Notes under the pieces: generated by a model
Seen by the model: the letters and a program-made list of their open reading frames with translations, nothing else
Databases searched by the model: none
What the model was told of the DNA's origin: nothing
Virus record (IMG/VR): IMGVR_UViG_2690316121_000001
Location: 1-4,487 of that record
Source: a virus
Taxonomy: Duplodnaviria > Heunggongvirae > Uroviricota > Caudoviricetes
Length of the DNA stretch: 4,487 nucleotides
Direction: 5' to 3' (one strand)
Part shown: one piece after another, positions 1 through 4,487 of the stretch
Position numbering within the stretch: position 1 is the stretch's first letter
Layout: each line of letters opens with the position of its first letter
Made by a program: the position numbers and the translations under genes

Positions 1-36
1 AAAGCTAAGTTCGGACTGAAAGGAGCAAGTGTATGA
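1..36 (+). CDS. P: 3' end of replication protein P-like gene (partial, start lies upstream of window)
   Basis: Frame 1 reads KAKFGLKGASV then TGA at 34-36, with no stop before it. The stop overlaps the ren ATG at 33-35 (ATGA), which is the P/ren arrangement I recall from lambda. Identification rests on memory of the lambda P C-terminus and on gene order only. Confidence 0.5.
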   Translation, partial: KAKFGLKGASV

Positions 37-323
37 CGGGCAAAGAGGCAATTATTCATTACCTGGGGACGCATAATAGCTTCTGTGCGCCGGACGTTGC
101 CGCGCTAACAGGCGCAACAGTAACCAGCATAAATCAGGCCGCGGCTAAAATGGCACGGGCAGGTCTTCTGGTTATCGAAGGTAAGGTCTGGCGAACGGTG
201 TATTACCGGTTTGCTACCAAGGAAGAACGGGAAGGAAAGATGAGCACGAACCTGATTTTTAAGGAGTGTCGCCAGAGTGCCGCGATGAAACGGGTATTGG
301 CGGTATATGGAGTTAAAAGATGA
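33..323 (+). CDS. ren: Ren protein (lets the phage escape Rex exclusion)
   Basis: 96-aa ORF, MTGKEAIIHYLGTHNSFCAPDVAALTGATVTSINQAAAKMARAGLLVIEGKVWRTVYYRF..., essentially identical to lambda Ren as I recall it. AGGAG at 21-25 sits 7 nt before the ATG; stop TGA at 321-323. Confidence 0.93.
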   Translation: MTGKEAIIHYLGTHNSFCAPDVAALTGATVTSINQAAAKMARAGLLVIEGKVWRTVYYRFATKEEREGKMSTNLIFKECRQSAAMKRVLAVYGVKR

Positions 324-348
324 CCATCTACATCACTGAGCTAATGAC

Positions 349-380
349 AGGCCTGCTGGTAATCGCAGGCCTTTTTATTT
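349..380 (+). terminator. tR2: Rho-independent terminator, matches lambda tR2
   Basis: Perfect 8-bp stem aggcctgc (349-356) pairing with gcaggcct (365-372), 8-nt loop tggtaatc, followed by TTTTTATTT. Sequence and position (just after ren) match lambda tR2 from memory. Confidence 0.85.
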
Positions 381-395
381 GGGGGAGGGTAAATC

Positions 396-722
396 GTGGC
401 TGACTGGCAAATACCAATCATCATTCTTGCCGGAGCTTCGCTGGTTGCTGGCTTTATCCTGCTGAAGAAGCATAAAGACCGTGATCAAAAAGTCGAAGTT
501 CTCTATGGGTATCCGGCGAACAGCACAACATGGCTGACTATTTACCACTACCGAAAATCAGGCCGTTGGGTATTCGAATGGGATGATCTGTTTGCTGAAA
601 AGCGACCAAAGTCATGGGGAGACATCAGCGAATGCATGATGTTTGAAGAAAGAAAATCCGGCGCAACCCGAGAAGAGTTTAACGAAGCGTGGAGGCGATT
701 AAGTGAGAGGGGGTATCAATGA
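396..722 (+). CDS. Hypothetical small membrane-anchored protein (108 aa), not present at this position in lambda
   Basis: GTG start at 396 preceded by a strong SD (GGGGGAGGG, 381-389). The N-terminus WQIPIIILAGASLVAGFILL is a hydrophobic helix followed by KKHKDRD (positive-inside), then a ~85-aa charged, Trp-rich soluble domain. Stop TGA at 720-722; the ninB SD/ATG follows 22 nt later. No homolog recognised. Confidence 0.65.
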   Translation: MADWQIPIIILAGASLVAGFILLKKHKDRDQKVEVLYGYPANSTTWLTIYHYRKSGRWVFEWDDLFAEKRPKSWGDISECMMFEERKSGATREEFNEAWRRLSERGYQ

Positions 723-744
723 GCAGAATTAAGTCGAGGTAACA

Positions 745-1191
745 ATGAAGCAAATATACATGCTTCGCAACGAAGCAATCAGAAACAACGCCATAGACGC
801 AATACTCTCACTTCCGATCGACGACAAGTCACCTCACGAAGTCCACATTAAAGAACCCAGGCGGAGCAATCCTCAAAACCGCCTTATGTGGGCGTTATTG
901 CAGGACGTATCACGTCAGGTGCTTTGGCATGGAAAGAGACTTGCGCCGGAGGACTGGAAAGATCTGTTCACTGCCCTGTGGCTTAAGACCAAAAAACTGG
1001 AGCAACGAAGTGCGCCTGGTATCGACGGTGGCGTTGTCATGCTTGGCGTGCGTACCAGCAAAATGCGAAAGGCCAGCATGACTGAGCTTATCGAAATCAT
1101 GTTCTGGTTCGGCTCAGAGCGCAACGTGCGGTGGAGTGATGACTCCCGGCGAGAGTATGAATGGTCACAACGAAAAGGTAGGGCTGCATGA
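745..1191 (+). CDS. ninB: NinB/Orf-family recombination protein (divergent from the lambda allele)
   Basis: 148 aa. The central block NPQNRLMWALLQDVSRQVLWHGKRLAPEDWKDLFTA parallels lambda NinB (DQNRKLWACLGDVSRQVEWHGRWLDAESWKCVFTA as recalled), and the C-terminus ends ...RAA as in lambda. GAGGT SD 5 nt before the ATG. Stop TGA at 1189-1191 overlaps the next ATG. Confidence 0.85.
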   Translation: MKQIYMLRNEAIRNNAIDAILSLPIDDKSPHEVHIKEPRRSNPQNRLMWALLQDVSRQVLWHGKRLAPEDWKDLFTALWLKTKKLEQRSAPGIDGGVVMLGVRTSKMRKASMTELIEIMFWFGSERNVRWSDDSRREYEWSQRKGRAA

Positions 1192-1715
1192 CTATCAAAT
1201 CAAATACGCCAGCACACGACAAGGACTGCTGGCAAACGCCGCTTTGGCTTTTTGATGCACTGGATATTGAGTTTGGATTCTGGCTGGATTAGGCAGCGAG
1301 CGACAAAAATGCTCTGTGCGCTCACTGGCTAACTGAGGCTGACGACGCGCTAAATTCTGAGTGGGTAAGCCACGGTGCAATCTGGAATAACCCACCGTAC
1401 AGCAATATCAGGCCGTGGGTGGAAAAAGCCGCTGAGCAGTGTATACAACAACGACAGACGGTAGTGATGCTTGTGCCAGAGGATATGTCAGTCGGATGGT
1501 TCAGCAAGGCTCTGGAGAGTGTCGACGAAGTTCGTATTATCACTGATGGACGGATTAATTTTGTCGAACCATCGACAGGACTGGAGAAGAAGGGAAACAG
1601 CAAAGGTTCCATGCTGCTGATTTGGCGACCGTTCATCAGTTCTCGACGGATGTTTACTACTGTATCCAAAGCGGCATTGATGGCGATCGGGCAGGGCGTC
1701 AGGAGGGCAGCATGA
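1188..1715 (+). pseudogene. Phage Dam-family DNA N6-adenine methyltransferase interrupted by an in-frame amber codon (TAG at 1290-1292)
   Basis: One frame (frame 0) reads MTIKSNTPAHDKDCWQTPLWLFDALDIEFGFWLD, then TAG, then AASDKNALCAHWLTEADDALNSEWVSHGAIWNNPPYSNIRPWVEKAAEQ...VRRAA. It carries the WxTP N-terminal motif and the NPPY catalytic motif IV of N6-adenine methyltransferases. ATG 1188 overlaps the ninB stop and TGA 1713-1715 overlaps the ninE ATG, so the gene is integrated in the operon. It occupies the slot of lambda ninC/ninD. Confidence 0.7.
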
Positions 1716-1888
1716 GACGACAGCGACGAAGTATCACCGACATCATCTGCGAAAACTGCAAATACCTTCCAACGAAACGCTCCAGAAATAAACGCAAGCC
1801 AATCCCAAAAGAATCTGACGTAAAAACCTTCAATTACACGGCTCACCTGTGGGATATCCGGTGGCTAAGACATCGTGCGAGGAAATGA
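1712..1888 (+). CDS. ninE: NinE protein
   Basis: 58 aa, [58 protein letters not shown], near-identical to lambda NinE as recalled. The ATG sits inside the ATGA overlap with the methyltransferase stop. Confidence 0.93.
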
Positions 1889-1890
1889 CA

Positions 1891-2292
1891 ATGCTTTTAA
1901 TTCAACCTGGGTTCGGTTTAAAGATAAAAAAAGGACATATGTTCGGTTTCGAAGAGTCGAAACGAAAAATTCTGTCCATTAGATTGCCGTTTATCACCAT
2001 TCATTGGTTAAACAAAGAGTCAACCGATTATTGGTATAAATGTGCTCTGGCCGCATTTAACGACCCTGACTGGTTTGTGAAAAACCACCACGCAGTTCGT
2101 CAGGCAAAGAGAAAGGCCAATACGACATACATGAAGGCGTATCGAAAAGCATGGAAAGAACACCGCGATCGATACCAACAAGACATGGAAAAGCTTGAAT
2201 CAGAAAACATGGAATTAAGACGAAAGCTCGGTGAAGCAAAACGAGACATTGATGCTTACAAGCGACTTTTTAATGGTGAAAGCCATGCTTAG
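1891..2292 (+). CDS. Hypothetical protein (133 aa) with C-terminal basic region plus leucine-zipper-like coiled coil; absent from lambda
   Basis: ORF in frame 1, tightly packed between ninE and ninF. Preferred start ATG 1891 has GAGGA 8 nt upstream; alternatives are ATG 1885 (ATGA overlap with the ninE stop) and ATG 1939. The 5' ~170 nt are AT-rich relative to flanks. C-terminus RQAKRKANTTYMKAYRKAWKEHRDRYQQDMEKLESENMELRRKLGEAKRDIDAYKRLF shows a heptad pattern L-N-L-L-A-I-Y-F at a/d positions. Stop TAG at 2290-2292 overlaps the ninF start region (ATGCTTAG). Confidence 0.6.
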   Translation: MLLIQPGFGLKIKKGHMFGFEESKRKILSIRLPFITIHWLNKESTDYWYKCALAAFNDPDWFVKNHHAVRQAKRKANTTYMKAYRKAWKEHRDRYQQDMEKLESENMELRRKLGEAKRDIDAYKRLFNGESHA

Positions 2293-2461
2293 CCCATCCC
2301 AAACCCTTCAATACCAGAAAGAAAGCGTCGAGCGAGCTTTAACGTGCGCTAACTGCGGTCAGAAGCTGCATGTGCTGGAAGTTCACGTGTGTGAGCACTG
2401 CTGCGCAGAACTGATGAGCGATCCGAATAGCTCGATGCACGAGGAAGAAGATGATGGCTAA
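2285..2461 (+). CDS. ninF: NinF protein
   Basis: 58 aa, [58 protein letters not shown], near-identical to lambda NinF as recalled, with a Cys-rich zinc-ribbon-like motif. Start taken at the lambda-equivalent ATG, not the upstream ATG of the track ORF. Confidence 0.9.
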
Positions 2462-3065
2462 ACCAGCGCGAAGACGATGTAAAAACGATGAATGTCGGGA
2501 ATGGTTTCACCCTGCATTCGCTAATCAGTGGTGGTGCTCTCCAGAGTGTGGAACAAAGATAGCACTCGAACGACGAAGCAAAGAACGCGAAAAAGCGGAA
2601 AAAGCAGCAGAGAAGAAACGACGACGAGAGGAGCAGAAACAGAAAGATAAACTGAAGATTCGAAAACTCGCCTTAAAGCCCCGCAGTTACTGGATTAAAC
2701 AAGCCCAACAAGCCGTAAACGCCTTCATCAGAGAAAGAGACCGCGACTTACCATGTATCTCGTGCGGAACGCTCACGTCTGCTCAGTGGGATGCCGGGCA
2801 TTACCGGACAACTGCTGCGGCGCCTCAACTCCGATTTGATGAACGCAATATTCACAAGCAATGCGTGGTGTGCAACCAACATAAAAGCGGAAATCTCGTT
2901 CCGTATCGCGTCGAACTGATTAACCGCATCGGGCAGGAAGCAGTAGACGAAATCGAATCAAACCATAACCGCCATCGCTGGACTGTCGAAGAGTGCTGGG
3001 CCATCAAGGCGGAGTATCAGCAGAAACTCAAAGACCTGCGAAATAGCAGAAGTGAGGCCGCATGA
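2451..3065 (+). CDS. ninG: NinG / Rap recombination protein
   Basis: 204 aa, [46 protein letters not shown]..., essentially identical to lambda NinG (Rap) as recalled. Overlaps the ninF 3' end by 11 nt; stop TGA at 3063-3065 overlaps the ninH ATG. Confidence 0.93.
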
Positions 3066-3268
3066 CGTTCTCAGTAAAAACCATTCCAGACATGCTCGTT
3101 GAAGCATACGGAAACCAGACAGAAGTAGCACGCAGACTGAAATGTAGTCGCGGTACGGTCAGAAAATACGTTGATGATAAAGACGGGAAAATGCACGCCA
3201 TCGTCAACGACGTTCTCATGGTTCATCGCGGATGGAGTGAAAGAGATGCGCTATTACGAAAAAATTGA
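3062..3268 (+). CDS. ninH: NinH protein (small, probable DNA-binding)
   Basis: 68 aa, [68 protein letters not shown], matching lambda NinH as recalled. The stretch [18 protein letters not shown] looks like a helix-turn-helix. ATGA overlap with ninG. Confidence 0.93.
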
Positions 3269-3911
3269 TGGCAGCAAATACCGAAATATTTGGGTAGTTG
3301 GCGATCTGCACGGATGCTACACGAACCTGATGAAAAAACTGGAGACGATAGGATTCGACACCAAAAAAGACCTGCTTATCTCGGTTGGCGATTTGGTTGA
3401 TCGTGGTGCAGAGAACGTTGAATGCCTGGAATTAATCACATTCCCCTGGTTCAGAGCTGTACGTGGAAACCATGAGCACATGATGATTGATGGCTTATCA
3501 GAGCGTGGAAACGTCAATCACTGGCTGCTTAATGGCGGTGGCTGGTTCTTTAATCTCGATTACGACAAAGAAATTCTGGCTAAAGCTCTTGCCCATAAAG
3601 CAGAAGAACTTCCGTTAATCATCGAACTGGTGAGCAAAGATAAAAAATATGTCATCTGCCACGCCGATTATCCTTGTGACGAATACGAGTTTGGAAAGCC
3701 AGTTGATCATCAGCAGGTAATCTGGAACCGCGAACGAATCAGCAACTCACAAGACGGGATCGTGAAAGAAATCAAAGGCGCGGACACGTTCATCTTTGGT
3801 CATACGCCAGCAGTGAAACCACTCAAATTTGCCAACCAGATGTATATCGATACTGGCGCAGTGTTCTGCGGAAACCTCACATTGATTCAGGTACAGGGAG
3901 AAGGCGCATGA
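3246..3911 (+). CDS. ninI: NinI Ser/Thr protein phosphatase (lambda PPase, metallophosphoesterase)
   Basis: 221 aa from ATG 3246 ([25 protein letters not shown]...), near-identical to lambda NinI as recalled. Metallophosphatase motifs GDLHG, GDLVDRG and GNHE are present. The track ORF begins upstream at 3171, but the lambda-equivalent start at 3246 gives the canonical 221 aa. Overlaps ninH by 23 nt. Confidence 0.93.
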
Positions 3912-4487
3912 GACTCGAAAGCGTAGCTAAATTTCATTCGCCAAAAAGCCCGATGATGAGCGACTCACCACGGGCTACGGCTTCTGACTCTCTTTCCGGT
4001 ACTGATGTGATGGCTGCTATGGGAATGGCGCAATCACAAGCCGGATTCGGAATGGCTGCATTCTGTGGTAAGCACGAACTCAGCCAGAACGACAAACAAA
4101 AGGCTATCAACTATCTGATGCAATTTGCACACAAGGTATCGGGGAAATACCGTGGTGTGGCAAAGCTCGAAGGAAATACTAAGGCAAAGGTACTGCAAGT
4201 GCTCGCAACATTTGCTTATGCGGATTATTGCCGTAGTGCCGCGACGCCGGGCGCAAGATGCAGAGATTGCCACGGTACAGGTCGGGCAGTTGATATAGCC
4301 AAAACAGAGCTGTGGGGGAGAGTTGTTGAGAAAGAATGCGGAAGATGCAAAGGTGTCGGCTATTCAAGAATGCCAGCAAGCGCCGCATATCGCGCTGTAA
4401 CGATGCTAATCCCAAACCTTACTCAACCCACCTGGTCACGCACTGTTAAGCCGCTGTATGACGCTCTGGTTGTGCAATGCCACAAGG
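3908..4487 (+). CDS. Q: Late-gene antiterminator Q (5' partial, continues past window end)
   Basis: ATG at 3908 in an ATGA overlap with the ninI stop. Frame 2 stays open to the window end and reads [73 protein letters not shown]...[12 protein letters not shown]...[50 protein letters not shown], matching lambda Q as recalled, including its Cys4 zinc-binding motif. Missing from the ORF track only because no stop falls in the window. Confidence 0.92.

Follow-up and report, generated by a model that had tools for sequence, protein, structure and literature searches.

A PHROG 1511 gene between ninE and ninF of an Escherichia coli lambdoid prophage, with a predicted globular domain, basic helix and leucine zipper

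An open reading frame (ORF) located between ninE and ninF in an E. coli lambdoid prophage is a real gene whose reading frame is conserved under purifying selection, and its product is a member of PHROG 1511. The ORF occupies positions 1891–2292 of the forward strand in a window of 4,487 nucleotides, by which we mean the whole stretch of DNA analysed (positions 1 to 4,487 of IMG/VR virus record IMGVR_UViG_2690316121_000001). The protein is confidently modelled as a four-stranded sheet-and-helix domain (residues 1–65) followed by a basic helix and a zipper. The heptad pattern identifies the C terminus as a genuine leucine zipper, through which the protein likely forms parallel homodimers. Its resemblance to eukaryotic basic-region/leucine-zipper (bZIP) proteins appears to be one of shared layout, that is, an analogy, and membership of that family is not demonstrable from the comparisons made here. 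The gene is an ordinary, uncharacterised phage accessory gene of a known family. We tentatively regard its product as a homodimeric delayed-early accessory protein that may bind nucleic acid or another polyanion, a reading to which we give somewhat less than an even chance.

A conserved gene coupled to its neighbours

The assignment to PHROG 1511 rests on a match of residues 1–133 to positions 1–133 of the phrog_1511 hidden Markov model (E = 4.1e-79, 264 bits), and all 39 diverse relatives in a wide alignment match the same family. PHROG 8749 is a related family, and neither has an assigned function. Full-length copies of the ORF were recovered by tblastn in 58 phage records; the phage carriers include Stx1 and Stx2 phages such as VT1-Sakai (H0039), together with HK629, HK630, mEpX2 and P22-like Salmonella phages, and a homologue with 45% identity is encoded by Yersinia phage PY54. 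Large protein collections yielded 69 clusters at 90% identity, and 55 representatives at 50% identity were found among 1.8 billion proteins, almost all of them 125–140 amino acids (aa) long. A 556-aa repetitive protein (P0110) with six matches to profile positions 13–35 was judged to be a spurious relative. Among 5426 complete E. coli genomes, 392 (about 7%) carry the gene, which is always annotated as 'hypothetical protein', and a literature search covering ninX, the nin region and phage bZIP-like proteins found nothing about it. The gene sits in Stx1 and Stx2 prophages, among others, yet has no assigned function.

A preliminary description of this DNA had placed a 133–135-aa ORF in the ninE–ninF gap. 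A chance ORF or a decaying remnant in an AT-rich spacer might be suspected at such a position, and truncated or frameshifted copies do occur in some prophages (P0013–P0019 and P0047–P0058; phrog_18832 and phrog_28676). However, this explanation is refuted by conservation and selection, and we regard its probability as negligible. The full-length sequence is conserved across phages of E. coli, Klebsiella and Yersinia and metagenomic phages. The ratio of nonsynonymous to synonymous substitution rates (dN/dS) is 0.09–0.16 in comparisons with HK629, a Stx1 phage and Salmonella phage SE1, with saturated synonymous sites, and AlphaFold2 returns a confident model. The frame is therefore maintained in related phages, a point on which the preliminary description had made its own proposal depend.

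The ORF ends at the TAG codon at 2290–2292, and it has two candidate starts, ATG 1885 (135 aa) and ATG 1891 (133 aa). The first would prepend Met-Thr and overlaps the ninE stop codon as ATGA (1885–1888). The ninE coupling junction, read from the sequence at 1879–1893 of the forward strand, comprises GAGGA at 1879–1883, which lies 1 nt before ATG 1885 and 7 nt before ATG 1891, the ninE stop TGA at 1886–1888 and both ATG codons. Because ATG 1891 is the RefSeq start (WP_053896180.1, with the same coordinates for the gene) and aligns with the near-invariant Met1 of the family, the product is most likely 133 rather than 135 aa long, and residues are numbered throughout on the 133-aa protein. Downstream, an 8-nt overlap (ATGCTTAG, 2285–2292, forward strand) joins the ORF to the lambda-type start of ninF. 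The translational coupling proposed for both sides is accordingly borne out by the ATGA overlap with ninE and the 8-nt overlap with ninF. RefSeq places the ninF start at ATG 2252 (69 aa; 41-nt overlap with the ORF), while the lambda-type start is ATG 2285 (58 aa; GGTGA 7 nt upstream); the Pfam NinF match, on 2285–2458, lies entirely downstream of both candidates. No promoter-like or terminator-like site in or near the ORF exceeded the level found in shuffled sequences. Given this result and the codon overlaps with its neighbours, the ORF is presumably read in the delayed-early pR operon. The nin region of lambda is delayed-early, and plaques can form without it (PMC10695390).

Predicted architecture and exchange of the N-terminal domain

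With the wide alignment, AlphaFold2 predicted the structure at a mean pLDDT of 92.5, with strands at residues 2–6, 11–16, 26–31 and 35–40 and helices at 42–57, 59–65 and 67–127. The last of these is a single unbroken helix of 61 residues with pLDDT values of 97–98, so that the non-helical C terminus named in the preliminary description as contrary to its proposal is not what the model gives. The N-terminal globular domain (aa 1–65; 1891–2085, forward strand; 38% GC) is delineated by pLDDT values of about 90 and by conservation. Across the family, M1, W61 and N65 are near-invariant, and D58, V/I69, R70, A72, K/R73 and A76 are strongly conserved. The most conserved stretch is a hinge motif, N65-H-H-A-V-R-Q-A-K-R-K-A (2083–2124, forward strand), for which the consensus is N-x-P-[SA]-[VI]-R-x-A-[KR]-x-K-A; within the wide family, N65 is retained in 37 of 39 members, V/I69 in 97%, and basic residues at R70 and K73 in 82% and 77%, respectively. 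AlphaFold2 breaks the helix at residue 66. Since N65 stands at this break, just ahead of the long helix, and in many relatives a proline follows two residues later (N-A-P-S-V-R), it is read here as a probable N-cap, and the motif probably forms the cap and first turns of the long helix as well as the onset of the basic segment.

The basic helical segment (aa 66–94; 2086–2172, forward strand) keeps its net charge while its sequence varies. The Lys/Arg-rich stretch reported in the preliminary description (RQAKRKANTTYMKAYRKAWKEHRDRYQQ) is present, and residues 66–95 contain 10 Lys/Arg against 2 Asp/Glu, with an isoelectric point (pI) of 10.7. Over residues 65–88 the net charge is +7 in the window protein and +5 in the family median, and the family medians for pI and net charge are 9.6 and +7. 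It is in these residues that the protein's charge is concentrated. Additionally, Ala and Tyr residues form a seam with i+4 spacing at positions 69, 72, 76, 80, 84, 88 and 92. This seam lies upstream of the zipper, and the basic segment could therefore also join in helix–helix packing.

The leucine zipper (aa 95–127; 2173–2271, forward strand) is charge-neutral, as is residues 89–129 as a whole, and it is supported by the heptad count, a shuffle test, the pLDDT values given above and an hhalign comparison described below. The a positions are M99, N106, L113, I120 and F127, and the d positions are Y95, L102, L109, A116 and Y123. The zipper and its Asn at an a position, which the preliminary description had proposed with about four heptads, are both confirmed, although the heptads number five. 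Core hydrophobic residues occupy 8 of the 10 a/d positions, a pattern matched by 55 of 100,000 shuffles of the segment (p ~5e-4). In the family, Leu fills 96 of about 190 d cells, the a positions hold mainly Ile (39), Asn (30), Leu (29) and Val (25), and Asn occurs at a106 or a113 in 22 of 39 members. Attractive g–e' pairs were found at 105–110 in 28 of 31 close relatives and at 112–117 in 26 of 39 members of the wide family. The region thus shows the features of a parallel two-stranded zipper, namely at least four heptads, Leu-rich d positions, beta-branched residues or Asn at a, and attractive g–e' pairs. The rules reportedly established for coiled coils (Harbury et al. in 1993; Asn16 of GCN4) are said to make such an a/d pattern specific for parallel dimers. 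The parallel arrangement is favoured here because Leu prevails at d and Ile, Val and Asn at a, with mostly attractive g–e' pairs.

Base composition and divergence distinguish the two parts of the gene. The GC content of the ORF is 40.5%, falling to 38.0% in its 5' half; the window as a whole has 48.5%, ninE 46.3% and ninF 51.4%, in agreement with the AT-rich 5' part described earlier. Bases 1891–2070 are identical to HK629 and Stx1 phages at 20–25 of 30 positions per 30-nt window (67–83%), whereas ninE upstream and bases 2071–2460 downstream reach 27–30 of 30 and are 97–100% identical to HK629 and the Stx1 phage. Synonymous divergence (pS) drops from 0.63 to 0–0.05 at codon 64/65, which places an intragenic recombination joint at the hinge motif. 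This pattern indicates that the N-terminal domain may be an exchangeable cassette, whose joint coincides with the stretch encoding NHHAVRQAKR. The horizontal acquisition suggested in the preliminary description calls for qualification: lambdoid nin regions have long carried the gene as one of their mosaic modules, and in this window the divergent allele is confined to its first ~180 bp.

Three chimeric database proteins have junctions at or near the same place. P0059 joins an unrelated N terminus of unassigned kind to the C-terminal helix of the family at the hinge motif; P0060 has the N terminus of a CII-like regulator at the same junction; and P0077 has the N-terminal half of a cytosine-5 DNA methyltransferase, joined a few residues past the hinge. 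All three probably arose by deletion or recombination as prophages decayed.

The bZIP resemblance and candidate functions

The preliminary description likened the C terminus to that of bZIP proteins. The layout supports this comparison, as a basic helix precedes the zipper and the zipper follows in register within one continuous helix. The window protein has N77-x7-R85, followed by d positions at R85+10, +17, +24, +31 and +38 and an Asn at +21; by eye, the N-x7-R spacing, the d positions up to +24 and the Asn coincide with those of GCN4 and C/EBP. On this basis, the protein could be a true bZIP-type, sequence-specific DNA binder. A zipper dimer would then splay its adjoining basic helices so that they enter a single major groove of a short palindromic site, which is the binding mode of GCN4 and C/EBP. 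The continuous helix predicted by AlphaFold2 is compatible with this arrangement, and C/EBP, Nrf2 and FosB appear among the PDB matches of the single sequence. However, those matches reach only E values of 0.3–4, and the alignment of Pfam bZIP_2 to residues 73–117 (profile 8–52) stays at 9.9 bits (E = 1), where the Pfam threshold is 22.3. Pfam bZIP_1 was not listed for the protein, and no bZIP family occurs among the 25 most frequent matches of family members. When two family profiles were searched against the PDB, the bZIP scores did not improve, and bZIPs ranked below or among the coiled coils of Rad50, prefoldin, tetherin and GpsB and designed coiled coils.

Profile–profile alignment and conservation give the same answer. 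Against a hand-typed alignment of 12 bZIP domains, hhalign aligned query residues 87–128 with zipper columns 23–64 (probability 73–78%) and left the basic region unaligned. The would-be DNA contacts are variable: among the 39 relatives, position 77 is most often Lys (8), Glu (7) or Thr (6), and position 85 is Glu (7), Arg (5) or Gln (4), so that a conserved basic-region signature fails. The conserved segment N65-H-H-A-V-R-Q-A-K was also considered as a bZIP core by comparison with N-N-I-A-V-R-K-S-R of C/EBP, and was rejected. Relative to the bZIP register it is displaced by 12 residues away from the zipper, and 12 is no multiple of seven; N65, moreover, is at the helix break. A helix cap is the better explanation. 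Thus, the layout noted in the preliminary description stands, while kinship fails in the Pfam, profile, hhalign and conservation tests, and true bZIP-type binding is improbable.

Database searches offered no other ready assignment. Pfam, NCBIfam and PADLOC gave sub-threshold generic coiled-coil matches only (CagS, UPF0242, Kbp-5, TMF_DNA_bd and LmuB), Foldseek against the PDB gave no informative fold match (E at least 1.1), and the single match in a BFVD fold search was a truncated copy from the same family.

Our tentative preference for a polyanion-binding homodimer is based on the conserved positive charge beside a dimerisation element, together with the genomic company of the gene. The charge of residues 65–88 is conserved although their sequence is not, and the adjoining zipper is neutral. 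Transcription and translation would take place within the pR/nin operon, which is delayed-early and dispensable, with the gene coupled to its two neighbours, and the zipper would bring two copies of the protein together as a parallel homodimer. Two basic helical segments and the mildly basic N-terminal domains could then form a positive surface for binding a polyanion, DNA or RNA being the most probable one. The N-terminal domain may serve as the specificity or effector module, swappable by recombination at the hinge motif.

The main rival is a protein–protein adaptor or inhibitor. In that case the N-terminal domain or hinge would have a protein of the host or the phage as its target, such as a factor in recombination, replication or defence; the zipper would confer bivalency only, and the positive charge would be incidental or would complement an acidic target. 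Host proteins are the targets of many accessory phage proteins, in the nin region and elsewhere. Furthermore, the best-conserved residues, D58, W61, N65, V69 and R70, cluster at the domain–helix hinge and not in the basic stretch; E115, R118, D119 and A122 are conserved on the zipper surface in the close family; and N-terminal alleles are swapped as cassettes, as expected of a target-recognition module. Nevertheless, no match to a known defence or anti-defence protein was found, PADLOC giving LmuB only (E 0.004, 13.6 bits, coiled-coil segment). The low dN/dS of the N-terminal half (0.08–0.11) gives no sign of arms-race diversification, and the conserved positive charge of residues 65–88 would be left unexplained. 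On balance, we consider the adaptor somewhat unlikely.

Binding to RNA specifically was also weighed. The Arg/Lys/Ala-rich helix would then play the part of an arginine-rich motif, and its target would be structured RNA from the early operon or from the host. The composition of residues 66–95 (R, K, A, Q, W and Y) seems similar to that of arginine-rich helical peptides such as the N terminus of lambda N, and Foldseek paired the N-terminal domain with the double-stranded RNA-binding domains of ADAR2 and DGCR8. These pairings, at probabilities of 0.15–0.21, are far below significance, no RNA element was found beside the gene (no search aimed at one was made), and the family has no fixed genomic neighbour; we therefore hold RNA binding of this kind to be as doubtful as true bZIP binding.

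A bolder form of the polyanion-binding proposal would see in the family a phage version of the bZIP design, reached by convergence. An Asn-containing zipper homodimer would place two basic helices, topped by exchangeable N-terminal domains, on DNA or RNA, with a role in delayed-early regulation or in modulating recombination or replication. This is a long shot, though slightly less so than either of the two specific binders above. If true, it would constitute a nucleic-acid-binding architecture undescribed in bacteria or their viruses. Likewise, if the protein bound DNA in the manner of bZIPs, it would be a prokaryotic analogue, of a rare kind, to a eukaryotic design; failing that, it is an ordinary phage 'hypothetical'. 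The analysis narrows the questions to oligomeric state, nucleic-acid binding and interactors.

Gene neighbourhoods and comparison with known systems

Small accessory genes form a classic mosaic in the nin region of lambdoid and Shiga-toxin phages, and several of their products (NinB/Orf, NinG/Rap and NinH) have been found to act on DNA. The window contains ren (33–323), a hypothetical ORF (396–722), ninB (745–1191), a Dam-type methyltransferase pseudogene (1188–1715), ninE (1712–1888), the gene under study, ninF (2285–2461), ninG (2451–3065), ninH (3062–3268), a Ser/Thr phosphatase gene (3246–3911) and the beginning of the Q antiterminator gene (3908 onward). The 108-aa hypothetical ORF lies between ren and ninB, roughly in the ninA slot, and has no Pfam match; its hydrophobic N terminus (IPIIILAGASLVAGFILL) suggests a possible membrane anchor.

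The PHROG 1511 gene of lambdoid phages always occupies the ninE–ninF slot, and Dam may be present or absent upstream. Dam immediately precedes it in Tbat2_3, and its surroundings in PY54-like elements are Lar, RdgC-like, exonuclease, Dam and DinI genes. Distant members adjoin Dam, or YbcO and SSB, or lie downstream of an HTH_3 gene. Overall, the neighbours comprise NinB, Dam, NinG, RusA, Lar, RdgC, DinI, SSB, YbcO, KilA-N and HTH_3, a set of DNA-metabolism and accessory genes. Such neighbourhoods suit an accessory gene of phages that often lies close to genes of DNA metabolism, and they point to nothing more specific. In two metagenomic phages (L016, 7001–7402; L018, 5960–6361), distant members with about 25% identity occur outside any early region, in a small-gene cluster after terminase and MuF-like genes. 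The cluster of L016 is followed by a portal-like gene; in L018, the family member comes directly after a KilA-N domain gene and the contig then ends. The positions in L016 and L018 imply that the family is not tied to the nin context.

In many phages that otherwise differ, a Dam-family methyltransferase gene is found no more than one to three genes away from the family member; these are the window, the Stx1 phage, Tbat2_3, PY54 and two metagenomic contigs. An obligatory link was rejected, as no Dam adjoins the gene in HK629 or SE1, and the association is frequent only. The Dam-type N6-adenine methyltransferase gene of the window (1188–1715) has an in-frame amber codon, TAG, at 1290–1292 (codon 35), where the intact orthologue of the Stx1 phage has Ser, and RefSeq calls it a pseudogene ('internal stop'). 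Apart from this stop the frame is undamaged, and at the protein level it shows about 97% identity, with 5 differences in 175 residues. For this reason, the amber mutation is probably recent.

The closest comparisons are with the named relatives in PHROG 1511 and 8749, namely H0039 of VT1-Sakai, ORF B69 of the Stx1 phage, gp55 of HK629 and ORF53 of PY54. The PHROG 1511 homologues of named phages are full-length, 45–90% identical to the window protein and of the same length and architecture, and those of lambdoid phages share its ninE–ninF slot. What sets the window copy apart is a less common allele of the N-terminal domain; no more than 7 E. coli records reach 99% identity or above to this copy, and most are 80–90% identical. 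The preliminary description also related the slot to ninX of P22-type nin regions. The positional part of this claim is correct, since ninX of P22 fills the same slot, likewise with overlapping start and stop codons. Homology, however, is absent (BLASTP E = 13; NinX belongs to PHROG 444), and NinX, at 112 aa, has neither a basic helix nor a zipper and no sequence similarity to the window protein.

The comparison with eukaryotic bZIPs (GCN4, C/EBP and Fos/Jun; PF00170 and PF07716) is one of design. In both, a basic helix runs unbroken into a zipper with Asn at an a position. In contrast to the bZIPs, the PHROG 1511 protein gives no significant profile match, its family varies at the basic-region signature residues and has its conserved motif 12 residues out of register, it adds a 65-residue N-terminal globular domain, and the family is restricted to phages. 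No PDB chain matched the query by sequence or fold, including RptR if present in the searched copy. RptR is a 79-aa bacterial repressor called bZIP-like by its authors (PDB 9R2Z; PMC12255303). It resembles the predicted arrangement of the window protein in being a small prokaryotic dimer with splayed basic helices proposed to act on a short palindrome (PMC12255303), but it is an all-helical four-helix protein without a long zipper. A bZIP-like mode of binding has thus already been suggested outside eukaryotes.
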